Part shown: positions 14,046-62,042 of the stretch, one piece after another
Layout: every line of letters begins with the position of its first letter
Numbering within the stretch: the stretch's first letter is position 1
Source: Dehalococcoidia bacterium
GTDB lineage: Bacteria > Chloroflexota > Dehalococcoidia > DSTF01 > JACRBR01
Assembly (NCBI GenBank): GCA_041494685.1
Contig: JBGQBE010000001.1
Span: 62,001 to 126,000, forward strand
DNA: 64,000 nt
Direction of reading: 5' to 3'
Position numbers and translations under genes: made by a program
The notes under the pieces: generated by a model
The model's input: only the letters and a program-made list of their open reading frames with translations
Told to the model about the DNA's origin: nothing
The model's database searches: none

Positions 14046-14077
14046 AGGACGGCCGCCCGATGGGGCGGCCGTCCTGC
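14046..14077. terminator. GC-rich hairpin between convergent genes
   Basis: CAGGACGGCCGCCC-GATG-GGGCGGCCGTCCTG. Confidence 0.7.
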
Positions 14078-14103
14078 ATCTGCGATGCTCCCAGGCTACG
14101 GCG

Positions 14104-14805: not shown

Positions 14806-14875
14806 ACCCCGTTCCCTCCTTGGAACCGTCTCGGCAGGTGCTGAAAAAGGGTCGAAAATTCGATGTCCAAAGTAC

Positions 14876-14903
14876 TTGACAGGTCGATTTCAGGAACTAC
14901 AAT
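14876..14903 (+). promoter_or_regulatory. sigma70-like promoter
   Basis: TTGACA-16 nt-TACAAT in an AT-rich intergenic region. Confidence 0.6.
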
Positions 14904-15067
14904 ACATGTATAGCCAATCAGGCTACTTGAATCACGTTACTTGGTTCATGTGGTGAATTTCACGAACCGATACACGTGTTATGGCAATCATCTCTCAGGC
15001 ATCATGCATTACCCTTCACGGATTTGCAAGACTTTGAGCTGCCATAACGCTACGAATTTCGAAAGAA

Positions 15068-15330
15068 GTGGGGCTGTCGCTGGGTCGAGGACGTGCGGAG
15101 GAGATCCCGCCACGCGCGGGGAACGGCGGCAGCGGATCCGAAAGGAGAGGGTCCCGGGAAGGAGCTGAGCCCGGCGAGTGCAAAATGCTTTGGTGGCAAC
15201 AAGGCGGGGGATTCGGCACTCAGGGCAAGGTTCCGGGGGCGGTTTGGCCGACCGCCCTTCCCTGCAGCATCATCGGTAGGTCGGTCCAAGGGAGGAACCG
15301 AGAGAGCCGGTCAGGAGGGCCGGCTTTTTC
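15068..15330 (+). ncRNA. candidate structured ncRNA of unknown class (may start near 14910)
   Basis: Series of hairpins and a + strand intrinsic terminator with no credible + strand CDS upstream. Confidence 0.45.
15304..15330 (+). terminator. intrinsic terminator
   Basis: GAGCCGGTC-AGGAG-GGCCGGCTTTTT. Confidence 0.7.
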
Positions 15331-15342
15331 GTGGCCCCGCTT

Positions 15343-16230: not shown

Positions 16231-16346
16231 GCTTCGCTCCGTCGCTACAAAGGGGCCGGCGGGCACATTCTACCGGCGCGCCCGCCCCGGCACAGCCCGC
16301 GCCGCCGCCGATACCGCATCCGGGCCCGCGCGCGTACAATCGCGGC

Positions 16347-16784
16347 ATGGAGATGGCCGTCGGCATCGACGTGATCGTCATCAGCCGCGTGGCGAAGGTG
16401 CTCGACAAGCACCCGGAGCGCTTCCTTCAGCGCGTCTATACGCCCGAGGAAGTGGCCTTTTGCCGCGGCCGCGTCCACGAGCTGGCAGCCCGCTTCGCCG
16501 CGAAAGAGGCGGTCATGAAGGCCCTGGGCACCGGCGCGCGCGGCCTCGCGTGGCGCGAGATCGAGGTGCTGCCGAACCGCCGCGGCAAGCCGCTCGTGTA
16601 CCTGCACGGCCTGGCGAAGCAGCGCGGCGAGGCCATCGGCCTGCAGGGCGTCGACATCAGCCTGACGCATGAAGGCGACCTCGCCATCGCGGTGGTCGTC
16701 GGCATGGCCAGCGACGCGCCCATCGATCGCGCCGCGCACCGTGCGGGCCTGGTCGAATGGCTGAAAGAGCAGGGACGGCTATGA
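16347..16784 (+). CDS. acpS: holo-ACP synthase
   Basis: GIDVI, LAARFAAKEAVMKALGTG, GKP, ISLTHE. Confidence 0.96.
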   Translation: MEMAVGIDVIVISRVAKVLDKHPERFLQRVYTPEEVAFCRGRVHELAARFAAKEAVMKALGTGARGLAWREIEVLPNRRGKPLVYLHGLAKQRGEAIGLQGVDISLTHEGDLAIAVVVGMASDAPIDRAAHRAGLVEWLKEQGRL

Positions 16785-18466: not shown

Positions 18467-18467
18467 C

Positions 18468-18881
18468 TCACCTGCTTTGATTGTCAGTTGTTTGCTCACG
18501 ATTTTCCTGTGCGGTGGGCGCGGGCGGCGGGCTTGAGGGCGGTCCAGATTCGACGGACGGCGGCGGGGCGGCCGCGGGGGCGCCGGAACGCGGTCGGGAC
18601 TGATTGTTTGGATTGACCGTGGCGCGCAGTCTATCAATGATCATCGGATGGATGAGCGGGACGACTTGGCGCATGTCGAAGCGCGAGCCGCGCGGGCCGA
18701 GGAGTCCGGCATCACGAATGGCGATCAGGATCTCGTGCAGGGCGGGCGTGTCGCCGCGCTCCTCAAGCACGCGCAGGCCCAAGGCGACTTCGCGCATGCG
18801 GCGGGAGCGATTGCCGCTGCGGAACGCGTTCAAGTTGCCGCGCGGCGCACCCGCGCCGGGCCGTCGCCCGCCTCTCGGCAT
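18468..18881 (-). CDS. small protein with terminase-small-subunit-like N-terminus
   Basis: MPRGGRRPGAGAPRGNLNAFRSG resembles the GAPxGNxNA motif; GAGG RBS. Confidence 0.55.
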   Translation of the reverse strand: MPRGGRRPGAGAPRGNLNAFRSGNRSRRMREVALGLRVLEERGDTPALHEILIAIRDAGLLGPRGSRFDMRQVVPLIHPMIIDRLRATVNPNNQSRPRSGAPAAAPPPSVESGPPSSPPPAPTAQENREQTTDNQSR

Positions 18882-18997
18882 GTCGTAGCCTCATTTCCAG
18901 TGCGGGGTGATCGCCGGGGCGAGTGTACGGCAGGGTGGGGGCGAGTTCGAAGCGGCGCGTGTCACTGCGTCTGGGGAGGACGCCGCGTCACGGGTAT

Positions 18998-19067
18998 CGT
19001 CCAAACTAGACGACTGACGGTCGGTGGAGTCGAAGAGGATCACTGACCTTCCCGTCCAGCGGCGAGC
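18998..19067 (+). repeat. conserved left-end sequence L, copy 1
   Basis: 60/70 identical to 48736-48805 by manual alignment. Confidence 0.9.
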
Positions 19068-19127
19068 AACGCGTCGTCAGTGTCGTGGCTCTTTCGGCCA
19101 CCCAGAAGAAATCGGCGCGCGAGGCAC

Positions 19128-19213
19128 TTGACATCTCCAAACTGAGAGTGATACTCTCCCTCTCAGTTACGGTAGCTGCACTCTCACTCTCTAATCTGAG
19201 AGTGGTGCTCTCA
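19128..19213 (+). promoter_or_regulatory. promoter with palindromic operator repeats
   Basis: TTGACA-16-GATACT; AACTGAGAG/CTCTCAGTT inverted repeat around the -10; TGAGAG-N5-CTCTC occurs twice. Confidence 0.65.
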
Positions 19214-19235
19214 CCATTCAAGGAGGCGTCCTGTC

Positions 19236-20477
19236 ATGACCAAGCTGACCGGTATCAGCGAAATTGTACTCACTGCTGTCGAGACCAAGAACCTCGACAC
19301 CCTCTGTTTCAGGGGGTCCGCACCGCTCGCCCATCTGGCAATCCTCTCACAAGCAGACGTGTTCGACCAGGACACGAACCCGCACGGACTCCAAAGGGAT
19401 CTGTCGGCGAAGCACGCCGCGGAGGCGTATGAGTACGCGCACCGACCCGCAGATGGATCGCATCCGCGCGCCTTTCCCGAAGTCGTTGTCAACGTGCGAG
19501 ACAAGAAGGTCATCGAGATCGAGGACGTGTCGCCGGCCGGGGACGACCAACTGCGGCAGGTGCGCGTGCATTTCTTCCTCGAGAAGATGCGCGGCCCCGA
19601 CAAGGTATTTGTGAGCCGCGTCGATGGGAACCATCGATTGTTCTACGGCGCCGGTGGCGATGACCGCGACCCCGTGTTGGCCGACGTGCCGTTCCAGATC
19701 CAGGTCGGACTCACAAGGGATCAGGAGGCCCATCTGTTCGTCGACATCAACGCGAACCAGAAGGGCCTGAACAGCTCGCACCTCGACATCCTTAAGAATC
19801 GGCTCACGCCTGCGGAGCGCGAGATCAAGGACTACCCGCAACGATGGATCGCGAAGCGGCTCACGGACGATCCCGGCTCTCCGTGGCACGGGTTGATCCA
19901 CATGGGTGGAGCGAAGAAGGGCGCCCGAGCCCAAGGGTTGTCGCGCCCGGTGAACTTCGCGAGCCTCGAATCAGGCGTGGCACGCACGTGGGCAAAGAGT
20001 CAGTACATCCACGATCTCACGCAGATCGAAGCGCAGTACGGCGTGATTCGCAACTACTGGATCGCGGTAAAGGCGGTCTTCGCGAAGGAGTGGGCCGACG
20101 CGAAGGGATACCTGCTGCTGAAGAACATCGGCGTCCTCAGTCTGTCGATCCTGGGTGGCACCGTGGTGGACCGCTGCATCCCGCGCGGGAAGGTGACGCC
20201 GGAGGAGATGGCGTACTACCTGCGGCAGGTGCAGGGCATCATCGATTGGCAGCGCGACGCCACCGGAGACGGGTCGATTAGTGGCATGTCGGGCAACCGT
20301 GCAGCACTGCTCATCGCCGCTCAGATGGCGGGACAGCTGTCCGATCCGACTGGCACGACGGTGATTAAGGACCTCGAAGATAAGTTGATTCGGGAGGCGG
20401 TCGGGACGAGGCAGAGCGATGACGAGCGCGCTATGGAGGGCGAGCTGGCAGCGGCGTCAGAATTCGTCAGGAGTTGA
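19236..20477 (+). CDS. DGQHR (DndB-like) domain protein
   Basis: GLQRDLS, FPEVVVN, RVDGNHRL, EAHLFVDINANQK; AAGGAGG RBS. Confidence 0.88.
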   Translation: MTKLTGISEIVLTAVETKNLDTLCFRGSAPLAHLAILSQADVFDQDTNPHGLQRDLSAKHAAEAYEYAHRPADGSHPRAFPEVVVNVRDKKVIEIEDVSPAGDDQLRQVRVHFFLEKMRGPDKVFVSRVDGNHRLFYGAGGDDRDPVLADVPFQIQVGLTRDQEAHLFVDINANQKGLNSSHLDILKNRLTPAEREIKDYPQRWIAKRLTDDPGSPWHGLIHMGGAKKGARAQGLSRPVNFASLESGVARTWAKSQYIHDLTQIEAQYGVIRNYWIAVKAVFAKEWADAKGYLLLKNIGVLSLSILGGTVVDRCIPRGKVTPEEMAYYLRQVQGIIDWQRDATGDGSISGMSGNRAALLIAAQMAGQLSDPTGTTVIKDLEDKLIREAVGTRQSDDERAMEGELAAASEFVRS

Positions 20478-40559: not shown

Positions 40560-41594
40560 TCAGCGGAGGGAGAACGAGAGGACGCCCGCGTAACGGTCCG
40601 TCACCAGGAGCGAGCCGTCCGCGATGGACAGCCCGGCCGGCGCCGTGAACAGCGAGCCGGAGTTCAGGTCCCGCATATCGCGCCTGCCGATCAGCCCGAG
40701 GTACCTGCCGTCGGGCGCGAACACTTCCACGGCGACCAGCAGCCCGTCGCTCACGAAGACGCGCCCTGCCGCATCGACCGCGACGCCTTTCGGGCGCGCC
40801 AGCGATCCCGCCGTGTCGCCGCGCCGCCCGAACTCGCGCAGGAACGCGCCGCCCGGCGACAGCTCCACGACGCGCGCGTTGAGCGTGTCGACGACGTACA
40901 CGTTGCCGGCGGCGTCCACGGCGAGGGCGCCGGGGACGTTGAAGCCTTCGGCGCCGCCCGCACGCGTGCCGGTCCCGGCCGTCCAGAGGACGTCGCCGCC
41001 TTCGGTGAACCGCAGCACCTGGTGGTTCTCGGCGTCGGAGACCACGACGCCTCCGTCCGGCAGCACCGCCACGCCGACGGGGCGCGCCGGCTTGCCGTTG
41101 ACGCCCGCCGGCAAGAGGAGGGCCCGCTGCACCTCCCCCGAGAGATCCATGACGACGATGCTCGGGTCCAGCGAGTTGGCGATGAACAGTCGCTGGCCGT
41201 CCGTCGCGATCGCCATGGGCAGCTGGAGGCTCACGCGCGCGCTGAGTTGGCCGCCGAAGGTCGCGATGACGCGGCCGGCGGAGTCGAGCTTGAGGACGCG
41301 GTTGTTCCCCGTGTCCAGCACGAACGTGGCGTCGCCGACCCGGACGGCGTCCACCGGGATCGTCCAGCTTCCGCCCGCCGGCGCGGCGATCGAGCGGGCG
41401 AGCGGCGCCGGGTACACCAGGCGGGAGACCCGGACGCCCGAGGCCGCGCCGCCGATCGGGATGATCGCCGGGAGGATGAGCCACGTCGCCGCGGAGAACA
41501 GCAGCCCGACGGCGGCCAGCGCCAGCAGCTTCTTGTGAAGCTCAACCGGCAACAGGTGTTCCGCGCCCCAGAGGCCGTACGAACCGCGCTGCAA
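40560..41594 (-). CDS. membrane-anchored NHL-repeat protein
   Basis: P.G.AVD..GNVYVVDT.N.RV repeats; N-terminal TM. Confidence 0.85.
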   Translation of the reverse strand: MQRGSYGLWGAEHLLPVELHKKLLALAAVGLLFSAATWLILPAIIPIGGAASGVRVSRLVYPAPLARSIAAPAGGSWTIPVDAVRVGDATFVLDTGNNRVLKLDSAGRVIATFGGQLSARVSLQLPMAIATDGQRLFIANSLDPSIVVMDLSGEVQRALLLPAGVNGKPARPVGVAVLPDGGVVVSDAENHQVLRFTEGGDVLWTAGTGTRAGGAEGFNVPGALAVDAAGNVYVVDTLNARVVELSPGGAFLREFGRRGDTAGSLARPKGVAVDAAGRVFVSDGLLVAVEVFAPDGRYLGLIGRRDMRDLNSGSLFTAPAGLSIADGSLLVTDRYAGVLSFSLR

Positions 41595-41616
41595 AGGACC
41601 ACCTCGTTCCTTTTCC

Positions 41617-42291
41617 CTATTTCTTGTGGCAGTTCTGGCACAACGTCACGGTCGGCATCGTGTTGAACTGCGTCCCCGGCGTGCCGCCGTGCGTGGCGTG
41701 ACAGCTCAGGCACTTCACGTAGTCGCCCGGCCCCGTCCCGTCCGCGTTCCAGAGGCGCGTGCCGGAGTAATCGCCGTGGTACGGGTCCCACGAGCTGTCG
41801 ACAGGGGCGATGCCAAGCTCACGGGCGTTGACGTCGACGGGGTGGTTGACGGGCCCCGCCTTCGTGTGGCAGTTGCGGCAGAAGTCGGCGCCACCCGGCA
41901 ACTTCAGGAACTTGGCGTAGGGCGTGCCGTGGGCGTCGTGGCAGCGGTCGCAGTCCGCCCCTTTGACGCCGGGACTTCGCAGGTGCAGCGGCCGCGAGAG
42001 GTCGAACGCGAAGGTCCCGACCGTGGTGACGGTGCCGTCGTGGCAGCTGAAGCACAGCGGCCGCAGACCGGCGAACGGTCCGCTCGTGTTCGGTTTGGAG
42101 GCCCAGAGCGCGTCCGCGCCGGCGTCGTGCGGCACGTGGCAATTGACGCAGACGGACGTGCCGGGGATCGACACGCCGTGCTTGGTACCGGTCACGTCCT
42201 TCTCGTCGCCGAAGGCCACGCGCCCCCGCGCCGCGAGGACGACCCCCATCGCCACCAGGACGCACACTGCCACGGCTACCAGGTGCTTCAT
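41617..42291 (-). CDS. multiheme cytochrome c (6 CxxCH)
   Basis: CVNCH, CFSCH, CDRCH, CRNCH, CLSCH, CQNCH; signal peptide. Confidence 0.92.
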   Translation of the reverse strand: MKHLVAVAVCVLVAMGVVLAARGRVAFGDEKDVTGTKHGVSIPGTSVCVNCHVPHDAGADALWASKPNTSGPFAGLRPLCFSCHDGTVTTVGTFAFDLSRPLHLRSPGVKGADCDRCHDAHGTPYAKFLKLPGGADFCRNCHTKAGPVNHPVDVNARELGIAPVDSSWDPYHGDYSGTRLWNADGTGPGDYVKCLSCHATHGGTPGTQFNTMPTVTLCQNCHKK

Positions 42292-42361
42292 GAGCCCCGC
42301 GGCCGGTGGCCGGCGCCAGCCCCTCGCGCCGGGCGGGAACCCGGACCCCGGCTTCGCTCCG

Positions 42362-44005
42362 TCACGGCGCCCCCAACTGGAACACGAACATCCCCATCAG
42401 GCGATCCATCACGTACAGACGGTCGCCGACGATCTCGACGCCGTAGGGGTACTGAAGCCCGGACTCGGGCAGCCCGTTGCCCGCGGCGTCGGGTCCGCCG
42501 ATCGACCCGAGAAACGCCCCGGCGGCCCCGAATACGCGCACCTCGCGGAGCGCTTCGTCGCTCACGAAGACGCGCCCTTGCTCATCGATGGCGACGTCCT
42601 GCGGCATGGCCAGATCGTCACGCCCGATCGCCGACACAAACGTGCCCTGCGGCGAGTACTCCTTCACCTCGTGGGTCCCCGTATCCACAACCCACAGGTT
42701 GCCGTGGCCGTCGAGCGCGATGCCGCTCGGCGTCGCCAGGCGTTCGCTGCTCGACGTGACCGCGTGCTGGCCGATGGCGGCGAGGAACACGCCGCTCGCG
42801 CTCAACAGCACGACGCGCTGGTTGCTGGAATCGCTGAGCCAGATCGCCCCCGAGTCGGTCACGGCGATGCCGGCGGGGTGGAACGGTCGCGCCGCCTTGG
42901 GCGCCTGCACCGGGATCACCTTATCGACGAGCCCGGCCGGCGACAGCTCGATCACGTTTCCGAAGAGTGGCGCGGCGACGTAGATCTCGCCCCCGTGCGT
43001 CGTCATCGACAGGGCACGCAAGATCGATGTCGGGCCACCGGGATCGCTCTCGAACGTCCGGGCAAGTTTCCCGTCCGCGGTGACCGTCAGGACGCGCCCC
43101 TTGTTCGTATCCAGGACGAACACGCGGCCGTCCACGACCGCCAGATCCGCCGGCAGGTCCGGCGAATCGGGCATGATGTGGCCTTCTTGATCGGTAGTGA
43201 ATGCGGGGATCGTCTGCACGAGCCGGGCCGCGAATGGGCCGTCGGCGGGCTGCGCGTCGCCGCCGTCGAATGAGCCTACCGGAGCCACGAGGCTCGCCTC
43301 GCTGCCGCGCGCGCGCGGGAGCAAGAGTCCGACGAACAGCGCAACGGCCGTGAGCGCGATCAGCGCCGCCAGCATGGGGCTCAGCGAGGCCGGTCGCAGG
43401 GACGGCTGCCCCGTCCGAGCGGTCGTTGCGGGCGCCGTCGCCGGCTCGGCGGCCGAGATCCCCAAGACGGTCCGGAGCACGACAAGGCCGAGAATGCCCC
43501 ACACCGCCAGGACGGCAAGGCCCGCTCCGAGCGGAGCGAACTGGCGCGGCGTCGCCAGTCCGAACTTCGCGTTCTCGTGCAAGTGCGGAGGTGCGACCGA
43601 GTTGAAGCGGAAGGTCGTCTGGGCCGGCGTGTATTCGCTGCCGCCGCCGTAGCGGACCACGACTGTGTGCTCGCCGCCCCACGTGGGCTCGTACGGCAAA
43701 GCCGCGGTACCCGTCGCGTCGGTCATGGCGCTGCCGAGCGTCATCAGCCGTTCGCCAAAGACCGTCGAGATCTCGGAGAAGACCACGGGCTCGCCGCGCG
43801 AAGGCGTGCCGTCCTCCGCTGAAAGCTTCGCTGAGAGGGTCATGGTGGAGCGACCCTCGACCTGGTCCGTCAGCGTCACGCCCCGCAGCACCGTCGGAAC
43901 CGGCCCGCCGGCCGGGCCCTCGGCCCTGGCCGCGCCGCTCATCGACCATGCCAGCGCGAGAGCGCCGAGCGCCGCCAGGATCGCGCCGCGCTTCGTGATC
44001 TGCAT
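42362..44005 (-). CDS. Ig-like domain, two TM helices and NHL-repeat protein
   Basis: Signal peptide; HTVVVRYGG (Ig-like); PSGIALDGHGNLWVVD repeats. Confidence 0.8.
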   Translation of the reverse strand: MQITKRGAILAALGALALAWSMSGAARAEGPAGGPVPTVLRGVTLTDQVEGRSTMTLSAKLSAEDGTPSRGEPVVFSEISTVFGERLMTLGSAMTDATGTAALPYEPTWGGEHTVVVRYGGGSEYTPAQTTFRFNSVAPPHLHENAKFGLATPRQFAPLGAGLAVLAVWGILGLVVLRTVLGISAAEPATAPATTARTGQPSLRPASLSPMLAALIALTAVALFVGLLLPRARGSEASLVAPVGSFDGGDAQPADGPFAARLVQTIPAFTTDQEGHIMPDSPDLPADLAVVDGRVFVLDTNKGRVLTVTADGKLARTFESDPGGPTSILRALSMTTHGGEIYVAAPLFGNVIELSPAGLVDKVIPVQAPKAARPFHPAGIAVTDSGAIWLSDSSNQRVVLLSASGVFLAAIGQHAVTSSSERLATPSGIALDGHGNLWVVDTGTHEVKEYSPQGTFVSAIGRDDLAMPQDVAIDEQGRVFVSDEALREVRVFGAAGAFLGSIGGPDAAGNGLPESGLQYPYGVEIVGDRLYVMDRLMGMFVFQLGAP

Positions 44006-44007
44006 CG

Positions 44008-45342
44008 CTACCTCACCGAGCCGATGGCTGCGTCTTCGCGACGGCTCGCTTCCATTGCCGCGATTTCCTCGATCTCATAGATCGAGATGATGGGGAACAG
44101 CCGGAAGAAGAGCATCATCAGCAGCGGAATAGCCGCCGCGGCGCCAACCGTGATCGCGACCTCGACGCGGCTGGGCCAGTAGACGACGACCGCGGTCGGC
44201 ATCAGCGGCTGCGCCAGTCCCGGCACCACGATGAGGAACCGCTTGAGCCACATCGCCAGCACCACCGCGAGCGCCGCCAGGGTGATGCCGGGGATGTTCC
44301 GCGTCCACGGCAGCGCGACCAGCAATATCGGCACGATGATCCCGCCGATCCCGAAGAACCACATCAGCGGCGCAAGGCGACCCACCAGGAGCAGCTCCAG
44401 GATCGACCCCGGGCCCTGGTGCATCTTGTAGCCCTCCGTGAGGTACTCGGCGAACATGAAGTACCCGTAGGCGGCGCCGAGCGCCATCATGATGAACGCC
44501 AGATACTTGAAGTGCTTCTCCTCGATGTACTCCTCGAGGTGGTACGCCCAGCGGAACCCCGCCGTCACCAGGATGACGGTGGCGACACCGGAGAACATCG
44601 CCGCCACGACGAAGTACGGCGCGAGGATCGTGCTGTCCCAGGCGGGACGCGATGTGACGCCGAAGAGGAACGCCAGCACGGAGTGCACCGCCACCGCCAG
44701 CGGGATAATCACGATCGCCACAACCGTCGTGCCCCACTCGAGCACGTGCTTCTGCGCCGGCGTGCCGTGCCAGCCCAGCGCGAGGTGTTTGTACAGCAGT
44801 TCGCGCGCCCGCCCCGCGGTCGGCCCCAGCCGGTCGCGGCAGGCGGCGATGTCCGGGATCAGTGGCAGGTAGAGGAAGACGGCGCCGGCCGTCAGGTACG
44901 TGGTCACGGCGACCACGTCCCAGAGCACCGGCGAGCCGACCTGGCCGTACCGGAAGAGGTAGATCATCCGCTCGGGGCGTCCCATGTCGATCAGCGGGAA
45001 CACCGCGCCGACCAGCACCGACATCACCGCCATCGTCTCCGCGATGCGCGAAAGCGGCGCCCGCCAGGGGGCGTTCGTGAGACGCAGGATGGCCGACGTC
45101 ATCGCACCGCCGTAGCTGATGCCGATGAAGAAGACCATGTCCCCGATGTAGAACCCCCAGGACACGCGCTGGCTCAGCCCCGTGACCCCTAGTCCCTCTT
45201 TGAGCTGCTGCAGGTACGCCACGAGCGCCATGAACACCAGGATCGACAGGCTGGCGACGGCCACCCAGAAGAACTGCCCCGGCCGGATGATCGGCCGCAT
45301 GGCGGTTTCTTCGAGGTCAGCCTGTTGCATGTGTTCCAACAC
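44008..45342 (-). CDS. NrfD/PsrC-family membrane quinol-interacting subunit
   Basis: GLGVTGL, WGFYI..VFFIGIS, R.AE, DMGRPER, SPVLWD, VHS, APYFV; exact start uncertain. Confidence 0.92.
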   Translation of the reverse strand: MLEHMQQADLEETAMRPIIRPGQFFWVAVASLSILVFMALVAYLQQLKEGLGVTGLSQRVSWGFYIGDMVFFIGISYGGAMTSAILRLTNAPWRAPLSRIAETMAVMSVLVGAVFPLIDMGRPERMIYLFRYGQVGSPVLWDVVAVTTYLTAGAVFLYLPLIPDIAACRDRLGPTAGRARELLYKHLALGWHGTPAQKHVLEWGTTVVAIVIIPLAVAVHSVLAFLFGVTSRPAWDSTILAPYFVVAAMFSGVATVILVTAGFRWAYHLEEYIEEKHFKYLAFIMMALGAAYGYFMFAEYLTEGYKMHQGPGSILELLLVGRLAPLMWFFGIGGIIVPILLVALPWTRNIPGITLAALAVVLAMWLKRFLIVVPGLAQPLMPTAVVVYWPSRVEVAITVGAAAAIPLLMMLFFRLFPIISIYEIEEIAAMEASRREDAAIGSVR

Positions 45343-45348
45343 CGTACG

Positions 45349-46152
45349 CTAACTCCAGTGCTCGCCCTCGATCGTCTGTCCGTGGCCCGCGATGTACCAC
45401 ACGCGCGGGCTCGTGTTCAGCTCTTCCTTCAGGCGGAATCCGTCGTTCTCGCTCAAGTAGCGGGACATCTCGTACGTCTCGCCGGACCGGTTCGTCATCA
45501 CCCGAGTATTGAGATCGGCGATGTAGAGCGCGTCCATCGGACACGCGGCGACGCACGCCGGCAGCTTGCCTTCATCGACGTAGTGGACGCAGAGGACGCA
45601 CTTCCCCACGGTCCCGCGTCTCTGCGGCACCGGGAACTCGGGCATCGGGTTGTTGAAGTTCTTCGGCGGTTGCGGCGGCTGGCGGAAGTTGAAGTACCGC
45701 GCCTCATACGGGCACGCCGCCATGCAGAGGCGGCAGCCGATGCAGCGGTCTTGATTCACCAGCACGACGCCTTCAGCGCTCTTGAACGTCGCCCCGACCG
45801 GGCACACCTTCAGGCAGGGAGCGTTCTCGCACTGCATGCAGAGGCGGGGCATGAAGAAGCGGTTGCCGTTGGCGTCTTCCACTTCGTAGATCTTGATCCA
45901 CTCCATCTCCTTGGGCAGGTAGTGGGTGGCCTGGCAGGCCTGCGTGCAGTACTTGCAGCCGTCGCACCGCCGGAGATCGACGACGGCCGCCCACTGATGC
46001 TGTTCCTTCGGCGCGGCATCCGGCGCGGGCGGCGCCGCCACAGCCGGCTGCCCATCGACCTGGCGCAGCGCGGACCAGGCCACCTCGCCCGTGAGCACGA
46101 AGGCCGTCGCGGCTCCCAGGGTCTGGAGCAGTTCCCTCCTGGAGATGGGCAT
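45349..46152 (-). CDS. Tat-exported 4Fe-4S protein (NrfC/PsrB-like)
   Basis: SRRELL Tat motif; CDGCKYC, CMQCENAPC..VCP, CIGCRLCMAACPY, KCVLC...PAC...CP. Confidence 0.93.
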   Translation of the reverse strand: MPISRRELLQTLGAATAFVLTGEVAWSALRQVDGQPAVAAPPAPDAAPKEQHQWAAVVDLRRCDGCKYCTQACQATHYLPKEMEWIKIYEVEDANGNRFFMPRLCMQCENAPCLKVCPVGATFKSAEGVVLVNQDRCIGCRLCMAACPYEARYFNFRQPPQPPKNFNNPMPEFPVPQRRGTVGKCVLCVHYVDEGKLPACVAACPMDALYIADLNTRVMTNRSGETYEMSRYLSENDGFRLKEELNTSPRVWYIAGHGQTIEGEHWS

Positions 46153-46360
46153 CGACAGGCTCCATTCATGCCGGCGAACTGGCGGTCGCTCTCGACAGAA
46201 CAATTGTGCCCCGGTCGATGCCGTTTGGCATGCGTGGTACCGCTTCAGCGCACACGGGCAGATCTACCTGCGTCAACCTCGAAGGTCTATGCCCACAGAT
46301 ACATGACCCCGTGCCACCGGCGAGCGCCTAATGGGTGTAAATACGCGCTTGGAGGTTGCC

Positions 46361-55590: not shown

Positions 55591-56166
55591 TCAGGCGGCC
55601 GCGGCCAGCGCGATCTGCTCCGGCGCGCCCCGGCGGTCGGCCAGCGCGATCAGCGCCGGCACATCGACGATCGAGACCAGGTACTCCGGCAGCTTGGCGA
55701 TCGCGACGATGAAGTCGTGCTCGCGCGCGCCGCAGGCCGACGCGTCGTCGATGTTCGCGCCGTCCACCATCATCACCTCCGTCACCGCGTCCACGACAAG
55801 GCCGAGGAATCCGCCGTTGTTCTCGACGACGACGATCCGCGTCTTATCGCCGACCTCGGTCGGCGCCATGCCCACCAGGTCCGTGAACGCCGCGACCGGG
55901 ATCACCCGCCCGCGCAGGTCCGTCATGCCGGCGATATACGGCGCGCTCGACGGGATCCGCGTGATCTCCTGCATCAGGATGATCTCCTGCACGATCTTTA
56001 TGTCGATGCCGAAGTAGCCGTTTGCCGACTTGAAGATCACCAGGTGGGCGTTCTGTCCCGCCTGGAAGAGCACCGGCGTCTCCCCCGCGGCGGCCTGCGC
56101 TGCGGCGACCTGCTCGACCGACACCGGCCCAGCCACGGCGGCCGTCGCGTTCTTCTTCGCTGCCAT
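55591..56166 (-). CDS. cheW: chemotaxis coupling protein CheW
   Basis: FGIDI..VQEI, TRIP, GMTDLRGRVIPV, GLVVDAVTEV. Confidence 0.93.
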   Translation of the reverse strand: MAAKKNATAAVAGPVSVEQVAAAQAAAGETPVLFQAGQNAHLVIFKSANGYFGIDIKIVQEIILMQEITRIPSSAPYIAGMTDLRGRVIPVAAFTDLVGMAPTEVGDKTRIVVVENNGGFLGLVVDAVTEVMMVDGANIDDASACGAREHDFIVAIAKLPEYLVSIVDVPALIALADRRGAPEQIALAAAA

Positions 56167-56237
56167 GATGATCGTCCCTTCTTGCACAACTCGCTGAGGG
56201 GCGGCGATGGCGCCGCCCCTCAGCGGTCAGGTTCCTG

Positions 56238-57881
56238 TCAGGCGGCCTGCTTGAACGCGTCGATCCGCTGCTTCTCCTGGAGCACGAGCACCAGGAACTC
56301 GTCCATGCCCTGCGCCTCGCGGCCCAGCGCGGCGGTTTTCTGCGCCATCTCGGAGATCTGGGCCGTCACTTCTTCGACGCCGGCCGAGACCTGTTCCGCC
56401 GCCGCCGCCGCCTGCTCGGCCTGCGCCGACGCGGTGCCCACGGAGTCGTTCACCTTCTGGCTGTTCTGGGTCATGGCGTCCGACGACACCTTCATCTCTC
56501 CGGCCACCGACGTCAGGTCGGTCATCGCCGTGTTCAGCTGCTCCGCTTGCGCGGTGATGTTCTTCGCCGCGTCCGCGATGCGCGCGATACCGCTGCTCAA
56601 CTGGACGTTCGTGGCCACGATCGACTGCATCGCCTCGCCGGCTTCGCCCGCCACGCCCATGCCCTTCTCCACGTCGGCGACGCCGGCCTGCATCGCCTGT
56701 ACGACCTCGGCCGTACCGGCCTGCACCGCGCTGATCAGCTGCGCGATCTGCTTCGACGACGACGCAGCCCGCTCCGCGAGCTTGCGCACCTCGTCCGCCA
56801 CGACCGCGAAGCCGCGTCCCTGCTCTCCCGCCCGCGCCGCCTCGATGGCCGCGTTCAGCGCCAGCAGGTTCGTCTGGCTGGCCACATCGTCGATCGTCTT
56901 GACGATGCCGCCGATCTCCTCGCCGCGCTCGCCGAGCTGCTCGACGCGCGCGGCCGCCTTGTTGACCGCATCGCGGATCGACTGCAGGCCGACGATCGTG
57001 TTCTCGACCGCCGACTGCCCCGAAGCCGCGCCGGCGCTTGCCGTGGCGGCCAGTTCGTTGGCGGCCTCCGCATCGCCGGTGATGGACTCGATGGCGCGCG
57101 TCACGCTGTCGGTGATCGTGGCACCCTGGGTCGCCGTCACCTCGGTCCGCTGCGCGGCCTGCGCCACTTCCCGGATCGACCCGCCGAGCTGCTTCATCTG
57201 CTCCGACGTGAAGGTCATGGCCTCGGTCTGGCGCGTGGCGCCCGTCGCGATCTCGTTGATCGCCTTCGCCATCTCCTGCGCCGCCTTGTCGATCTCGCTG
57301 GCGCCCGTCGTCAACTCGCTCGACGACGTGGTGACGGCGTCGCTTGTATTGATCAGGCGCTCCAGCATCGCGCCGAGGTACGCCTCAATGGCCAGGGTCA
57401 TGTCGAAGGTGAGCACCTTGTTCCACGCGAGCAGCGTGTTCATCAGCTTCTCGCCTTGCAGGTGCTTGAACAGCACCGGGTAGACCAGCGTGTAGTACAG
57501 GACGTACGAGCCCATGTTCCAGCGCGGCTCCACGCCCAGCACCAGGTGGCGCTCGCCGATCAGCAGGCGGTTGTCGATGTACTCCTCGTCGATCCGGCCC
57601 TGAAGCAGCGAACGGAAGTAGCCCTTCTGCGCGCCCTGCAGCCGCGCGCGGTTGGTGCCGCCGCGGTCCACGACCGACGTGAACTCACGGAACTGGAAGC
57701 TGAAGTCGTAGAATTCGGTGACGATCCGCTCCGCCTCGGGGTCGAGGAATGGCGCGCAGTCGCGGATCAACTGCATCTCCTCGTCGCTGATGTCGAGCCA
57801 CCGCTTGCGGAGCGAGACATCGCTCTGCGTGATGCCCAGCTTCTCCCGCATCTTCCTGGTGCTACCGTTGTTCGTTGCCAT
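56238..57881 (-). CDS. globin-coupled methyl-accepting chemotaxis protein (HemAT-like, soluble)
   Basis: Protoglobin pattern FYD...Q..YF..L...IGERH...[36 protein letters not shown]. Confidence 0.92.
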
Positions 57882-58015: not shown

Positions 58016-59122
58016 TTAGTCCGCGACGCCGAGGAACAGCCGGTGCGTCGCGTCGATGATCGACGTCTCGTCGCCGGCGCGCAGCGCCTTGCCATACGTG
58101 TGGAACAGCCGCTTCACCAGCGCCTTCGTCACGTTGTCCAGCAGTTGCCGCTCGCGTGGATCCAGCGCGCCCGCGCGCTGGATCTCCGCCCGGCGCACGT
58201 CTTCCACGTGGCGGTAGAGCTGCTGCGCCGCCGCCGCGCCGTCGCCGTGATCGTGTGCCCATTGCCGCCGCGCGGCCGCCGTCGCGGCCACGGCAAGCTG
58301 CTCCCGCAGGTACAGCTCCGCCGGCGAAAGCACGTCGCCGCGCATCAGGCCCGCCAGGTCGGTCACGCGCGGCGACACGTCGGCCGGCCACGCGAAGCGC
58401 GGCATCGTCAGGTCGATGATCAGGCCGCTCGCGCGCGCGGCATCGACGACGGCCGACCGCATCGCGGGCGCCGGTTCGCCCTTGAACGCCAGCACCAGGC
58501 ACGCGCCGGACGCTGCCGCCGCCAGCTCTTCGACCGGCGCCGCCACCGCGTCCGCCGCGAACGCCGCCGCGATCGCCCGGCTGTGATGGCGGCTGAACAT
58601 GCGCACGTCGCCCACGCCAAGCGCCCGCGCTCGCCGGGCGAGATGCCCCGCCATGGCGCCCGCGCCGGCGATGCACATCCGCTCGGGCGCGTCCGCGCCC
58701 GCATGCCGCAGCGCCAGGTCGAGCTGCAGCCCGGCGTTACGCGCGTCGACGTCGACCGAGAGGCGCGCCTCGCGCCCGGCGGCGATGGCCGCGTCGCCGA
58801 ACGCCCGCAGCACGCCGGTCGTATCGGCGAACGCCGCCCGCACCTGCGCCAGCACGTCGATCTCGCCGACGACCAGCGAATCCGCGCCCGCCGCGACGAT
58901 CGCCAGGTGCTCCAGCGCCTGCCATGCCGAGAGCGCGGCCGCAGGAATATCACAGCGGTCGAAGGCGCGCTCGTCGGCGCTGTAGACCTCGACGCGCGTG
59001 CAGGTAGCGACGACGGCGAGGCCGGGCGCCGCGCAGAAGGCGCGCGCGGCCCGTTCGACGTCTTCAGCGGGCGAGGTCTTCAGCGACCATGCGCGCGCGA
59101 CGATCCGGTCCAACTGCTGCAC
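58016..59122 (-). CDS. hemA: glutamyl-tRNA reductase-like protein (divergent)
   Basis: [44 protein letters not shown]. Confidence 0.75.
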
Positions 59123-59285
59123 GCGATTTCGCTCCCCGCAACGACACGGTGCGCCGTCCGTCCGGCGCACTCGTCCGCGTAGAGTACGGCGTCACGAGTG
59201 CCATCTGGCATCAGGGGTTCACCGAAGGATCGGCGCCCTCACAGAACCGAGATACGTGCCGCAACGTGTTGACTGTGGGCGGGCG

Positions 59286-59320
59286 CAAGAAGAGGCGCCC
59301 CTCGCGGAGCGCCCCCTTCG
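59286..59320 (-). terminator. intrinsic terminator after the capsid gene
   Basis: On the - strand GGGGGCGCTCC-GCGA-GGGGCGCCTC then TTCTT. Confidence 0.65.
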
Positions 59321-59360
59321 CGGCGCAAGCGCCGCGTCCGACACCGCGCGGCCGCCACCC

Positions 59361-60248
59361 CTACGGCCGCACGCCCGTCAGCTTCGCCACCTTGATCGTG
59401 TTGAAGAGCGCGCTCGCCACGTACCACTTCACCCGCGTGCGCGTCGCGTCCTTCGTCTCCAGGCTGCCGATCGTCTCCACTTGCAGTCCGCCGGGCGCCG
59501 TCAGCCCCGCCAGCGCGCCCTCGCCCAGCTGCATCGCGTACACGGTCGAGCAGTCGGTGCTGGTACCCACCGTCTTCGCGTCGGAGATGTAGTCCGACAC
59601 GCCGATCGGCACGCCGTCGTAGAACTGGACCATCTGGCCGAACTCGTTGCGGTCGGTCTGCAGGAAGCTGCCCGTCGTGCGCGCGAGGTTGTTCAGCGTG
59701 CGCCGCGTGCGCTTGCTCATCAGCAGCAGCGCCGGCGGCCCGCCCTTCACGAGGTCGATCACTTCGTCCAGCTTCGCCAGCGTCAGCGTCGCGCCGTTCG
59801 CGCCCATCGTCGCCAGCTGGCCGCCAGTCGTCAGCTTGTCGATGCCGTCGAACGACTTGGCGTCCACGCTCGTGTCGCCGTTGAGGAAGGTGTCCTCGAA
59901 CTTCTGCTGCACCGCCTTCGCCCGCAGGCGGATCACCGACGCCTGCAGGTCCTGCACGTTGCTGCGCGTCGTCAGCAGGTAGTTGTCCACGTCCGCGTCG
60001 CCGCCGATGATCTTCAGCGTCGCCGTGATCTGCGAGAATGTCGGCGTGCCCTCTACCCAGGTGTCGCCGACGTCGAAGAACGCGGCGTTGGGGTTCGTGT
60101 TCTCGCGGTTGTACGTCAGCCCGTTGCCGGTGATCTCGATGAACGGGAGCACCTGCAGGATGGGCGAGTCCTGCACGATCGTCTCGATCACCCCCTGCAG
60201 GACGATGTCGTTCGAAAGCTTGGCGGCCTCCGCCAGCGTCAGTGCCAT
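59361..60248 (-). CDS. phage-type (HK97-like) major capsid protein
   Basis: GVIETI...SPIL..LPFIEI.G....YNRE, LKIIGGDADVD, FLNGD....SFDGI, SLETKDATRTRVKWY; GAGGAG RBS. Confidence 0.85.
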   Translation of the reverse strand: MALTLAEAAKLSNDIVLQGVIETIVQDSPILQVLPFIEITGNGLTYNRENTNPNAAFFDVGDTWVEGTPTFSQITATLKIIGGDADVDNYLLTTRSNVQDLQASVIRLRAKAVQQKFEDTFLNGDTSVDAKSFDGIDKLTTGGQLATMGANGATLTLAKLDEVIDLVKGGPPALLLMSKRTRRTLNNLARTTGSFLQTDRNEFGQMVQFYDGVPIGVSDYISDAKTVGTSTDCSTVYAMQLGEGALAGLTAPGGLQVETIGSLETKDATRTRVKWYVASALFNTIKVAKLTGVRP

Positions 60249-60321
60249 GGTCGTATCTCCTCACTCCCCCGCACGATGGCGGGGCTCCACTTCTCTCGAT
60301 GCTCCGCGCCGTGCCGCGCGG

Positions 60322-60837
60322 CTACTGCGGCGGGTGCGCCAGCCCGTAGCGGATCTTCTGCTCCGCCGTCATGCCGCGCAGGTCCGGCCCTGATCGCGGC
60401 GGCGCGCCTGCCGGCACCCGCCCTGCCTGCGCCTGCGACTCGATGTGCGCGCGCACCCGCCCTACCATGCTCCGCGCCGCCTCCACCGACGCATCGACCG
60501 CGTCGATGCTGTCGCCGGCGATCAGGTCGGCCGGCAGCGCGGGTTCCGTGCGCACCACCAGGTCGCGGTAGCGCTCGGCCGCGGCGCGCTGCCGCTCCGC
60601 CGCCTCGTCCAGTTGCGCCCGCAGCGCCGATGCCTCGGCGGCGGTCGCGGCCACCGCCTCGCTCTGCGCCGCCAGTTCGCCGCGCAGGCCGGCCGTCTCG
60701 GCCAGCGCCTGTTCGGCGCGCGCCGCGGCGTTCGCGGCGTCCGCCTGCAGCCGCTCTGCCTCGGCGCGCGCGTCCGCGAGTTGCTCCTGCAACGCCGCCA
60801 GTTCCTCCCCGTCCGGGGGTCTCCCGGGCTCCATCAT
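60322..60837 (-). CDS. capsid scaffold-like coiled-coil protein
   Basis: Ala/Glu coiled coil, LIAGDSI, C-terminal PAGAPPR...MTAEQKIRYGL; directly upstream of the capsid gene; GGAGGT RBS. Confidence 0.7.
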   Translation of the reverse strand: MMEPGRPPDGEELAALQEQLADARAEAERLQADAANAAARAEQALAETAGLRGELAAQSEAVAATAAEASALRAQLDEAAERQRAAAERYRDLVVRTEPALPADLIAGDSIDAVDASVEAARSMVGRVRAHIESQAQAGRVPAGAPPRSGPDLRGMTAEQKIRYGLAHPPQ

Positions 60838-61019
60838 CCGCACCTCCATCCACTGGTCGCGTATCCGATGCACCGACACTAGTCTGCACGCCGCGCGATC
60901 TCCAAGCGGCGGGGATCATCGGCTCTAGACCCCGCCGGTCGAAAGAGGCAGAGTGACGTGATCAGCCTGGCGGCTGACCAGCCGACCAGCCGACCAGCCG
61001 ACGAGCTAAGGAGCCGACC

Positions 61020-62042
61020 GTGCCGAACAAACCGAAGTACTGGGGCGTCATCTCATCGCTCCCCGCGCCGTTCCTCACCGCGCAGGCGCAGCAGCTGGAA
61101 TCGCTGGGGCTCGAGGGCATCTTCGCGCCGCAGGTCTACGGCCCCCCGTTCGTGCCGCTCGCCGCCGCCGCCGCCGTCACCCAGCGCGTGCGCCTCGCCA
61201 CGGGCATCGCTCTGGCGTTCGCGCGCAGCCCGTTCGAGACGGCCGCCGCCGCGATGGACCTGGACCGCATCAGCAACGGCCGCTTCACGCTCGGCCTCGG
61301 CACCAGCGTCAAGGCGTGGAGCGAGGGCTTCTTCGGCATGGAGTACGGCAAGCCAGTCGCCCACATGCGCGAGGTGATCGACATCGTCCGCACGGTGATC
61401 GCGAAGGCGCACACCGGCGAGCTGACGCGCTACGACGGCCAGTACCACCACCTGGACTTCAGCGAGTTCAACCCGCTCGGCGCGCCGCTGCGCACCGAGA
61501 TCCCGGTCTGGATCGCCGCGCTGCGCACGCCCCTGATCCGCCTCGCTGGCGAGATCGCGGACGGCGTCATCGGCCACCCGATCTGGTCGATCGACTGGGC
61601 GACGACGAAGGTGATGGACGACCTGAAGGCGGGGCTGGCGAAGGGCGGCCGCGCGCGCGGCGACATCGAATTCAACATGTGGCTGTTCGTCGCGCCGAAC
61701 GACGACCCGAAGCAGGCCATCGAGGACGCGCGCGCGACGGTGGCGTTCTACGGCGGCGTCGGGCAGTACGAGGAGTACTTCGCCGCGCACGGCTTCCGCC
61801 GCGAGGCGCAGGCGCTGCAGGAAGGCGTGCGCCGCGGCGACTACCTCTCGGTGAAGCACCTGGTCAGCGACGAGATGGCGCGGACCTTCGTCGTGTGCGG
61901 CAAGCCGGACGACGTGCGGACGCGCGTCATGCGGATCTGGGAGCACGCCGACTCCGCGACCCTCGGCCCTCCGGTCTACGGACTCGACCCCGGCGCCATT
62001 CTCCGCTACGGCGCGAAGATCGCGGAGCTGTTCTACGGGTGA
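61020..62042 (+). CDS. LLM-class flavin/F420 oxidoreductase
   Basis: LATGIALAFARSP, GRFTLGLGT, AGEIADG. Confidence 0.9.
   Translation: MPNKPKYWGVISSLPAPFLTAQAQQLESLGLEGIFAPQVYGPPFVPLAAAAAVTQRVRLATGIALAFARSPFETAAAAMDLDRISNGRFTLGLGTSVKAWSEGFFGMEYGKPVAHMREVIDIVRTVIAKAHTGELTRYDGQYHHLDFSEFNPLGAPLRTEIPVWIAALRTPLIRLAGEIADGVIGHPIWSIDWATTKVMDDLKAGLAKGGRARGDIEFNMWLFVAPNDDPKQAIEDARATVAFYGGVGQYEEYFAAHGFRREAQALQEGVRRGDYLSVKHLVSDEMARTFVVCGKPDDVRTRVMRIWEHADSATLGPPVYGLDPGAILRYGAKIAELFYG

Follow-up and report, generated by a model that had tools for sequence, protein, structure and literature searches.

A capsid gene and a scaffold-like gene encoded among host genes of a Dehalococcoidia bacterium probably encode the head of a domesticated, short-tailed particle whose genes are dispersed over the genome and which resembles a gene transfer agent (GTA). 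We give this reading a probability of roughly 0.6, the figure blending the question of function with that of the transfer role. Taken separately, a functional and domesticated particle system spread over several loci, with this pair as its head module, is highly probable, and gene transfer specifically as the role of that system has a little less than an even chance. The window, i.e. the whole 64,000-nucleotide stretch of DNA that was analysed, lies on contig C1 of a 3.29 Mb genome (G000), whose other contigs encode the remaining parts of the putative particle. We found no published description of this gene set.

The capsid and scaffold gene pair of the window

Both genes are encoded on the minus strand of the window, each behind its own ribosome binding site (RBS), and the following features can be assigned:

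59361..60248, minus strand: major capsid protein (MCP) gene of the gp7/epsilon15 type, 295 aa, ATG start, identified by family HMMs
60257..60262, minus strand: RBS GAGGAG, 8 nt 5′ of the MCP start, read from the sequence
60322..60837, minus strand: scaffold-like coiled-coil gene, 171 aa from the ATG at 60837, assigned by position and coiled-coil character
60843..60847, minus strand: RBS GGAGG, 5 nt 5′ of the scaffold ATG, read from the sequence
60895..60917, minus strand: 23-nt promoter-like element GATCCNCGCCGCTTGGAGNTCGC, ∼57 nt upstream of the scaffold start
59289..59345, minus strand: GC-rich hairpins 3′ of the MCP stop codon, weak candidate terminator, from folding energy

The preliminary description of this DNA had proposed a two-gene unit of a scaffold-like and a phage-type capsid ORF, and the MCP indeed scores far above the cut-offs of capsid HMMs. 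Its residues 4–293 match NF045672 (MCP_gp7_epsi_15) with 206.7 bits (cut-off 75), a full-length match above the curated cut-off that places it in the gp7/epsilon15 type, and it also matches phrog_212 ‘major head protein’ (8e-74), PF05065 (51.2 bits, cut-off 24.2) and PF20911 (32.1 bits, cut-off 27). The HK97 fold of the MCP is predicted from these HMMs, because the AlphaFold2 model, computed from 14 close sequences, was poor (pLDDT 46); a PDB profile search returned one marginal match, the 8cjz ‘Major Capsid Protein’ chain (E 0.001). Among 50,697 phage records the closest match reaches 40.6% identity. The MCP gene is present in a single copy, as a genome-wide search of the 3.29 Mb found no second capsid gene.

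For the upstream gene the longest ORF (60322–60879) begins with a GTG at 60879 and encodes 185 aa, but alignment with 13 orthologues favours the ATG at 60837 and hence a protein of 171 aa, of which the C-terminal 80 residues are the conserved part. The protein matches coiled-coil families only, with every score under the cut-off, and the named Atlas cluster nearest to it, Gp46 capsid assembly scaffolding protein (score 0.92), is no more than a lead; the gene adjoins the MCP gene in 20 of the 20 loci compared. Its position, its coiled-coil character and the one Atlas lead suggest that it is a putative scaffold. Comparison of its profile with two phage scaffolds using hhalign gave E values of 0.3 and 0.15, neither of them significant. 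A faint, likewise non-significant C-terminal likeness to the scaffold of Pseudomonas phage ZC01 was visible in hhalign.

The good RBSs and host-like codon style ascribed to the pair were borne out, with GC3 values of 0.97 (MCP) and 0.91 (185-aa scaffold ORF) lying within the range of the neighbouring genes (0.88–0.97). A terminator of its own, which had also been ascribed to the unit, was not: a consensus scan found none on the minus strand and one terminator-like site on the plus strand, and the hairpins downstream of the MCP (MFE –52.8 kcal/mol) are no better than shuffled sequences (z –1.5). A scan of positions 59000–61100 for consensus promoters found none. The 23-nt pattern has exactly two sites in the 3.29 Mb genome, one in the upstream region of the scaffold gene and the other ∼126 nt upstream of the adaptor gene on contig C14 (see below). 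Its inner 13-mer has six genomic sites compared to 0.07 for scrambled 13-mers, the other four sitting beside ordinary genes, downstream of which Rfam gave no match. The shared 23-nt element was not found before the locus of the large terminase (TerL), and a motif search found no motif common to all three upstream regions. We regard it as a candidate element by which the scaffold and adaptor loci may be co-regulated. A search for RNA runs that contain the locus listed none.

An assembly junction at the operon edges had been raised as a potential objection. The pair sits mid-contig (C1:121–123 kb of 208 kb), and there is no such junction, since contigs from four public runs cover both of its borders; an assembly artefact was rejected on these grounds. 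Recent horizontal acquisition was also rejected, given the host-like GC3 and trees that follow the host families. All 27 flanking proteins (∼20 kb on each side) are encoded by host genes and none belongs to a phage family, as had been described. The neighbour previously called hemA is a divergent GluTR-like gene, which scores 73–82 bits against cut-offs of 209–429.

Packaging and tail modules at separate loci

If, as the preliminary description had considered, the pair supplies the head of a GTA-like system with genes dispersed around the chromosome, then portal, terminase and tail genes should be found in isolation elsewhere in the genome. The genome-wide search it had proposed located them on two other contigs. 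Contig C37 encodes a TerL with a Terminase_6C domain and an SPP1-type portal (SPP1_portal, 68 bits), and C14 encodes an SU10-type adaptor, a 658-aa tail hub and a 70-aa protein (p70). In the family of the window the set is thus split over at least three loci (C37, C1 and C14), and in two genomes of a second family that have both genes on one contig the MCP and portal genes are 320–600 kb apart. Most other orders of the class carry a single compact cluster of ∼9 kb in the order p165-TerL-HTH protein-portal-scaffold-MCP-adaptor-hub-p70. Together with p73 the whole set comprises ∼10 genes, among them the HTH protein (100 aa), which is conserved within the cluster. Host genes flank all three loci of G000 as well as the compact cluster of a further genome, G166.

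The six TerL motifs that were checked (Walker A, Walker B and others) are largely invariant in 22 of 22 orthologues; because these motifs are almost entirely invariant and the portal is kept, DNA packaging appears to be retained. The small protein p165, encoded upstream of TerL, is possibly the small terminase; no small terminase was identified in the set, as p165 could not be assigned to a family and the closest named Atlas cluster reaches a score of 0.79. Orthologues of the adaptor match PF24175 (SU10_adaptor) with 44.3 bits (the G166 copy) and 38.2 bits (cut-off 27), and the G000 copy has no Pfam match at E 0.001. The structure model of the hub (pLDDT 89) predicts an N-terminal beta-propeller followed by a C-terminal gp27/Mu gp44-like tail hub: in a search with the model the C-terminal ∼340 residues match Mu gp44, T4 gp27, VgrG and the hubs of injection systems (E 6e-15), and the protein matches a phage ‘tail protein / protein D’ in BFVD. 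A PDB sequence search with the hub profile returned nothing useful.

Family searches across the G000 genome, which is 97.6% complete, found no S78 protease, tape measure, HK97-type portal, Terminase_6N or TerL_ATPase. Within the set no lysis genes or receptor-binding fibres were identified and no tail-tube gene was recognised. There are no integrase, replication or lysis genes among the 27 proteins around the pair, around the C14 locus or around the compact clusters, so that the contiguous integrase, replication/regulation and lysis genes of a prophage or satellite are missing from these loci.

Distribution, descent and interruption of the gene set

The MCP is present in 39 of 41 relatives, nearly always as a single copy; 32 relatives have an uninterrupted full-length gene and 7 a split, fragmentary or broken one, and in 2 the gene was not found. 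The portal is found in all 41 relatives and TerL in 40, and portal, TerL, adaptor and hub genes are conserved along with the capsid across the order. At the level of the class Dehalococcoidia the MCP occurs in 89 of 151 genomes, including genomes of 0.8–1.2 Mb, and among small genomes (0.8–1.6 Mb) TerL was found in five of five and the hub in four of five. The MCP was not found in the other 62 class genomes, with whole families lacking it (0/8, 0/5 and 0/4), and the gene set is therefore dispensable. The single-copy MCP orthologues are 53–91% identical across the class, and a few other lineages of Chloroflexota keep the set at 48–52% identity.

The preliminary description had suggested comparing synteny, dN/dS and trees across relatives. 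Three changes, the minimum possible, suffice to place the four host-family labels on the MCP, portal and TerL trees, and the same genus-level sister pairs appear in the MCP and RecA trees. Pairwise distances of the MCP correlate with those of RecA (0.75/0.80) and of the portal (0.85/0.92), and the mean p-distance is 0.225 for the MCP and 0.220 for RecA. Median NG86 dN/dS values are 0.24 (MCP), 0.25 (RecA), 0.33 (portal), 0.42 (TerL) and 0.52 (scaffold), of which only the comparison with RecA carries weight, because the extreme GC3 compresses dS and makes the absolute values unreliable. The flanks of the set vary between orders while the trees follow the host families. Together these data demonstrate that the set is inherited vertically and kept under purifying selection, and that the MCP is conserved as strongly as RecA. 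A patchy distribution, homologues residing mostly inside complete prophages and relaxed selection had been named as observations that would speak against domestication; instead the distribution is dense and follows taxonomy, close homologues do not lie inside complete prophages, and selection is as strong as on RecA.

In IMG/VR the MCP occurs in at least 536 stretches that are listed as viral contigs. Sixteen of these loci (≥9 kb) were mapped; they consist mainly of the genes of the cluster, arranged as in the host genomes, and the annotated flanks of four loci carry integrative or unknown genes and no complete phage.

In some genomes host genes and mobile elements are inserted between and into genes of the set, and in G000 and several relatives defence-type genes adjoin or invade the cluster. 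Elements of 8–15 kb interrupt the MCP or portal gene of relatives, with a serine recombinase at one junction, and their cargo looks defence-like (a KAP NTPase, an OLD-family protein with AAA_15 and an OLD-like TOPRIM, and a TIR protein). The recombinases that were encountered are part of separate insertions of low GC. Sporulation genes are known to harbour intervening elements with large serine recombinases, for example skin in sigK of Bacillus, and the interrupting elements of the relatives resemble these; they differ from skin-type elements in carrying defence-like cargo, and gene-restoring excision is putative for them. As a bolder addition to our reading, particle production would be terminal for the producing cell, and for this reason recombinase-borne defence islands may have come to use the genes of the set as insertion sites; by excision they may restore these genes, as intervening elements in sporulation genes do.

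Alternative explanations, proposed mechanism and known systems

The conservation evidence supports equally a domesticated particle that serves something other than gene transfer, be it a killing or defence device, a phage decoy, DNA export or a vehicle for cargo other than random host DNA. The gp27/VgrG-like hub with its beta-propeller, a fold common to puncturing devices, would suit such a role, as would the lack of recognised fibres and lysis genes and the defence-type genes that adjoin or invade the cluster in G000 and several relatives. We nevertheless consider this explanation unlikely, as the near-invariant TerL motifs and the portal argue for DNA packaging and the cluster has no conserved gene for a cargo or toxin; to our knowledge tailocins, the known killing particles, are devoid of capsid, portal and terminase. 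Another non-transfer role, a scaffold-loaded encapsulin-like HK97 nanocompartment with the coiled-coil protein as cargo or loader, had been offered in the preliminary description and fits a pair that stands alone in the family of the window with its own RBSs, all the more as encapsulin family 3 comprises PF05065-type shells that lack phage neighbours. Several observations speak against this explanation, which is very improbable: the same genomes retain portal, TerL, adaptor and hub, whose genes form one stretch with the pair in other orders, there is no conserved enzyme cargo (the neighbouring LLM oxidoreductase is seen only in the family of the window), and Pfam gave only phage capsid families and no encapsulin shell match. 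An encapsulin was rejected on this evidence.

Split, frameshifted or missing copies in some genomes, and the host genes and mobile elements inserted between and into genes of the set, are what would be expected if a very old prophage had left an inert relic that persists by chance and slowly decays, but we give such a relic only a slim chance given an MCP conserved like RecA over class-level divergence, full-length MCP frames in 32 of 41 relatives, retention of the genes in genomes of 0.8–1.2 Mb and largely invariant TerL motifs. It is scarcely more probable that the set is a live mobile element in tight co-speciation with its hosts, be it a minimal phage or a satellite that forms capsids. The listing of at least 536 such stretches as viral contigs and the compactness of the cluster in most orders are consistent with a live element; the absence of integrase, replication and lysis genes in or beside the cluster, the three-locus split in the family of the window, the 320–600 kb between MCP and portal in the second family, and flanks that vary between orders while trees follow host families all speak against it. 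The mapped IMG/VR loci likewise show mainly cluster genes, with no complete phage in the four annotated flanks.

In the favoured reading of a domesticated GTA-like system, an ancestor of much of the class Dehalococcoidia would have captured the phage-derived gene set, which has been inherited vertically since. We infer that in some cells the host expresses the split loci together, whereupon scaffold and MCP would assemble a procapsid on the portal, TerL would package DNA, and adaptor and hub would seal the particle and form its short tail. The released particles would then deliver host DNA to kin in the manner of a GTA. That a minimal short-tailed phage was domesticated independently and long ago in Chloroflexota, and that its ∼10 genes act as a GTA, we propose tentatively and at somewhat less than even odds.

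Functional GTAs are known from a handful of lineages, each a separate phage capture, and each has changed views of gene flow in its hosts. If the proposal is true, the present set would for the first time extend GTA-like viriforms beyond the few known lineages, and it would represent a new structural type that combines an epsilon15-type capsid, an SU10-type adaptor and a gp27-like hub. Dehalococcoidia abound in sediments, aquifers, soils and the deep ocean; most of them are uncultured, and small genomes are frequent among them. For this group the system would be a major, so far unrecognised route of DNA exchange, or of another particle-based function. Structural and synthetic studies would also gain a well-defined particle kit of very small size. 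Viral-detection pipelines already list these chromosomal clusters as viral, as seen in IMG/VR, which inflates virus and lysogeny estimates for the class.

Several known systems share parts of this picture. Phages with an MCP of the same family (phrog_212), such as Clostridium phage vB_CtyS-FA70, Gordonia phage Ewald and Pseudomonas phage ZC01, have the order terminase-portal-scaffold-MCP, with the scaffold directly upstream of the MCP in Ewald and ZC01, but their genomes (41–57 kb) also contain full sets of tail, lysis and replication genes, compared to about ten genes in host DNA in the present case. Podophage SU10 has the adaptor family PF24175 in common with the orthologues of the present set, and differs in that here the gene after the adaptor encodes a gp27/gp44-like hub with a beta-propeller. 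Encapsulins are HK97-class shell proteins, the class predicted for the present MCP, and are likewise encoded among host genes, whereas the present MCP has no encapsulin-family match and no conserved cargo enzyme, and portal and terminase are kept. A further parallel is provided by GTAs such as RcGTA of Rhodobacter capsulatus, with which the set shares structural and packaging genes derived from tailed phages, loci devoid of integrase and replication genes, and vertical inheritance with the host under purifying selection. Nor do GTA genes need to share one locus: those of RcGTA are spread over five (PMC9662315), compared to three in G000. Unlike RcGTA, the present set belongs to a different phylum (Chloroflexota, class Dehalococcoidia), combines a gp7/epsilon15-type MCP and a scaffold with no S78 protease, and has an SPP1-type portal, an SU10-type adaptor and a hub with no recognised tape measure or tail-tube gene, all within ∼10 genes in ∼9 kb that encode a putative particle.

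Capsid and scaffold genes in the window

The scaffold-like and major capsid protein (MCP) genes of the window are the head-shell module of a phage-derived set of about ten genes (p165, p73, terminase large subunit TerL, a helix-turn-helix (HTH) protein, portal, scaffold, MCP, adaptor, hub and p70) that behaves like host genes. The pair and one neighbour are:

59361-60248, minus strand: MCP gene, a 295-aa ORF with HMM matches
60322-60879 (longest frame; ATG at 60837 favoured), minus strand: scaffold-like coiled-coil gene, directly upstream of MCP
58016-59170, minus strand: GluTR-like gene (the 'hemA' neighbour), with GluTR N-terminal and dimerisation domain matches

The preliminary description of a phage-type capsid ORF is borne out, as the MCP reaches 206.7 bits against NCBIfam NF045672 (MCP_gp7_epsi_15; cut-off 75), passes the cut-offs of both Pfam PF05065 and PF20911, and matches phrog_212 'major head protein' at 8e-74. 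Alignment of 13 orthologues places the scaffold start at the ATG at 60837, giving 171 aa, and family searches with this protein returned generic coiled-coil families only, all under cut-off. The good ribosome-binding sites and host-like GC claimed for the pair also hold, with Shine-Dalgarno-like sequences at normal spacing before both genes and a third-position GC of 0.97 (MCP) and 0.91 (scaffold ORF) vs 0.88-0.97 in neighbouring genes; the terminator assigned to it after MCP lacks statistical support. The genome holds no second capsid gene.

The 27 proteins encoded within ~20 kb of the pair, to its left and right, are of ordinary cellular kinds (chemotaxis, GGDEF, permease, cytochromes, ABC exporter, SerA and others), and none belongs to a phage, integrase or transposase family, in agreement with the earlier view that no phage genes lie beside the pair. 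An assembly junction at the edges of the pair had been named as something that would refute the idea, and there is none: the pair lies well inside its contig (121-123 kb of 208 kb), contigs of the public run that accounts for 97% of the sampled words bridge both edges, and 59040-59412 and 60836-61095 are also spanned by small contigs of three other runs. The neighbour first called hemA is GluTR-like, but at 73-82 bits it falls below the NCBIfam cut-offs (209-429), and a search of 20 related loci did not find it beside the capsid pair. This gene is perhaps a diverged GluTR paralogue and not the housekeeping glutamyl-tRNA reductase.

Three further observations concern the surrounding sequence. 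Between the scaffold and LLM genes (60955-61000) lies a short tandem repeat of about three copies of an 8-nt unit (GGCTGGTC-like), and the contig of one public run lacks 8 bases at 60976, suggesting copy-number variation of the repeat. A protoglobin-coupled methyl-accepting chemotaxis protein followed by CheW (55591-57800, minus strand) is a haem-based gas/redox sensor feeding chemotaxis. At 40560-46203 (minus strand), NHL-repeat proteins, a multihaem cytochrome c (paired CXXCH), an NrfD-like membrane subunit and a 4Fe-4S ferredoxin subunit make up what looks like an extracytoplasmic respiratory or redox module.

Particle genes elsewhere in the genome and their order across the class

A Pfam search of the whole genome located an SPP1-type portal on contig C37 (68 bits), adjoined by a 474-aa TerL with a Terminase_6C domain and a phrog_5909 match, and the ~100-aa protein between them ends in a C-terminal helix-turn-helix. 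This locus (C37:21900-33900; 7900-19900 of the extracted stretch L127) has a GC content of 71-76% vs 53-60% in its defence-like neighbours; on one flank these are two ABC-3C-type proteins (DUF2326, CTD10), on the opposite flank an N6 DNA methylase. Searching the genome by tblastn with the proteins of contiguous clusters in relatives recovered the small genes beside TerL and a third locus, on contig C14, that encodes the adaptor, a 658-aa protein and a 70-aa protein between rpsF-ssb-rpsR and an M20 peptidase. Adaptor orthologues exceed the PF24175 (SU10 adaptor) cut-off. The 658-aa protein has a confident predicted fold (pLDDT 89) with an N-terminal beta-propeller half and a C-terminal half whose model resembles the hub fold of Mu gp44, T4 gp27, VgrG and contractile injection systems (Foldseek E 6e-15, probability 1.0), and its BFVD matches are phage 'tail protein / protein D / 43 kDa tail protein'. 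Two very small genomes (G154, C40:7777-10725; G176, C32:657-3176) have the hub in a longer frame of 850-987 aa, with ~150-300 extra residues inserted past the first 70-90. HK97-type portal, Terminase_6N, TerL_ATPase, S78 prohead protease and tape-measure families gave zero matches in the window's genome (97.6% complete). The proposal that the pair is the head module of a dispersed GTA-like (gene transfer agent) system is supported by the portal and TerL on C37 and the adaptor, hub and p70 on C14.

A 23-nt element occurs at exactly two sites in this genome, before the scaffold gene (window 60895-60917) and before the adaptor gene (C14:22101-22123), a hint that two or more of the split loci are co-regulated. 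Against this, it is absent before the TerL locus, and its inner 13-mer also occurs at four unrelated sites. The 13-mer, GCTTGGAG[AT]TCGC with TGAY ~6-8 nt upstream, has six genome sites vs 0.07 expected. The four others, away from particle genes, have an ordinary ORF or no obvious one downstream and zero Rfam matches; the motif may be a promoter class of the host organism. They are:

C11:69732, strand not stated: 13-mer site
C19:14065, strand not stated: 13-mer site
C47:19448, strand not stated: 13-mer site
C53:16377, strand not stated: 13-mer site

In other orders of the class the genes of the set are joined in one cluster. In the complete genome G166 this cluster spans ~9 kb, flanked by an acyl-CoA dehydrogenase/HD gene at one end and an MFS transporter at the other, in the order p165, p73, TerL, HTH protein, portal, (methyltransferase, opposite strand), scaffold, MCP, adaptor, hub, p70. 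Scaffold and MCP stand alone at all nine loci examined in the window's family, while in the remaining families of its order the modules are variously joined, rearranged or parted by host genes, with MCP and portal 320-600 kb apart in two second-family genomes that carry both on one contig.

Integration into the genes of the cluster also seems to be favoured. The MCP gene is broken near residues 35-42 and 64-68 by low-GC insertions of 8-15 kb in G028 (L037 6127-16389), G036 (L035 8715-17328) and the IMG/VR locus L243. Such insertions also break the portal gene in G028 (L206) and G030 (L207), which belong to different families, and both fall near residues 218-233; a similar element lies directly beside the portal in IMG/VR L212. 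Each carries a recombinase next to one junction (serine type; tyrosine type in L243) and cargo of defence-like appearance (KAP NTPase, SMC-like ATPases, an OLD-family protein with AAA_15 and OLD-like TOPRIM domains, a TIR protein). In G033 (L036) the MCP gene is in three pieces, parted by insertions of 2.6 and 2.2 kb (6205-8800 and 9209-11430) with zinc-ribbon and BNR-repeat ORFs and no recognised recombinase.

Distribution, descent and selection

Within the window's order, sampled as 41 genomes from 5 families and 27 genera (counts include the unpublished genome G021, on which no conclusion rests; alignments and trees exclude it), an MCP match is present in 39 genomes, full length and in a single open frame in 32, the portal in 41 and TerL in 40. 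Scaffold and MCP are adjacent at 20/20 fetched loci (19/19 without G021). The sole MCP duplicate among the 41 is in G022 (C208:1433-2317 and C23:10276-11109, both full length, 72% and 74% identical to the window's), which may be a mixed bin because the genome is 84% complete with 3% contamination. Across the class, MCP occurs in 89 of 151 sampled genomes (72 of 125 high-quality ones), almost always as a single copy and at 53-90% identity, even in genomes of 0.8-1.2 Mb; some families gave no match (0/8, 0/5 and 0/4). Five small genomes (0.8-1.6 Mb) all have TerL, and four have the hub. Beyond the class, matches turned up in 9 of ~134 genomes sampled from the phylum; in eight of these the gene is single copy, with 48-52% identity. 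The best 80 public relatives are titled Chloroflexota or Dehalococcoidia MAGs, including some Tepidiformaceae and one Candidatus Amarobacter.

Among 50,697 phage records the closest reaches 40.6% MCP identity. At least 536 related stretches are present in IMG/VR, and identity is 52-76% for the best 80. Of these 80, the 16 mapped loci of at least 9 kb consist mainly of the cluster's own genes, with their order unchanged. On one IMG/VR contig, L240, the MCP (10001-10915, 55% identical to the window's) is surrounded by same-strand ORFs without assigned function, one of 2319 aa, and the rest of the cluster is missing from its vicinity; this contig may represent a real phage akin to the one from which the domesticated set arose.

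MCP and RecA diverge to a similar extent, with mean protein p-distances of 0.225 and 0.220 in the same 24 genomes. Relative to the window's genome, MCP identity is 81-91% within the family (71-72% in one genus) and 72-80% across the order (55-59% in one family), and RecA identity 85-91% and 68-73%, respectively. Pairwise MCP distances correlate with those of RecA (Pearson 0.75, Spearman 0.80) and portal (0.85 and 0.92), the MCP tree recovers the genus-level sister pairs of the RecA tree, and the four family labels require the minimum of 3 changes on the MCP, portal and TerL trees (none of 200 shuffles needed so few). Median pairwise NG86 dN/dS is 0.24 for MCP, 0.25 for RecA, 0.33 for portal, 0.42 for TerL and 0.52 for scaffold, with RecA serving as yardstick since GC3 near 0.95 compresses dS and inflates the absolute values. 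Six short TerL motifs, taken here to be one Walker A-like and one Walker B-like motif, a coupling motif and three nuclease-domain stretches with acidic residues, are invariant or nearly so in 22/22 orthologues.

A phage-derived set of the putative gene transfer agent type

Such a set would build a procapsid from scaffold, MCP and portal, which TerL would fill with DNA, perhaps with p165 or the HTH protein as DNA-recognition partner, and a short tail of adaptor, hub and p70 would close the particle. The set has no gene to replicate, integrate or move, and no lysis or receptor-binding functions were identified in it.

That the particle serves some role other than gene transfer is unlikely, though it is the rival we take most seriously. 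A live mobile element is improbable, since mobility genes are missing, the loci are split and the trees agree with host relationships. It is hard to credit that the set is an inert, decaying relic when it shows RecA-level constraint and is retained in tiny genomes. We give equally little credence to an encapsulin-like compartment, the scaffold-loaded nanocompartment offered in the preliminary description, as portal, terminase and tail-end genes are kept alongside the capsid.

Judged from its genes, the set fits the definition of a GTA in genomic terms. Full-text searching of the main texts of openly accessible literature found no description of the cluster, and the elements in a Dehalococcoides virus preprint (10.64898/2026.09.15.751708) are unrelated and lack the hallmark proteins of tailed phages. 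The finding is, at the level of gene content, a putative GTA-type viriform in which both the host phylum and the parts list are new. It resembles the GTA of Rhodobacter capsulatus (RcGTA) in that its genes are dispersed, over three loci here and over five in RcGTA (PMC9662315).
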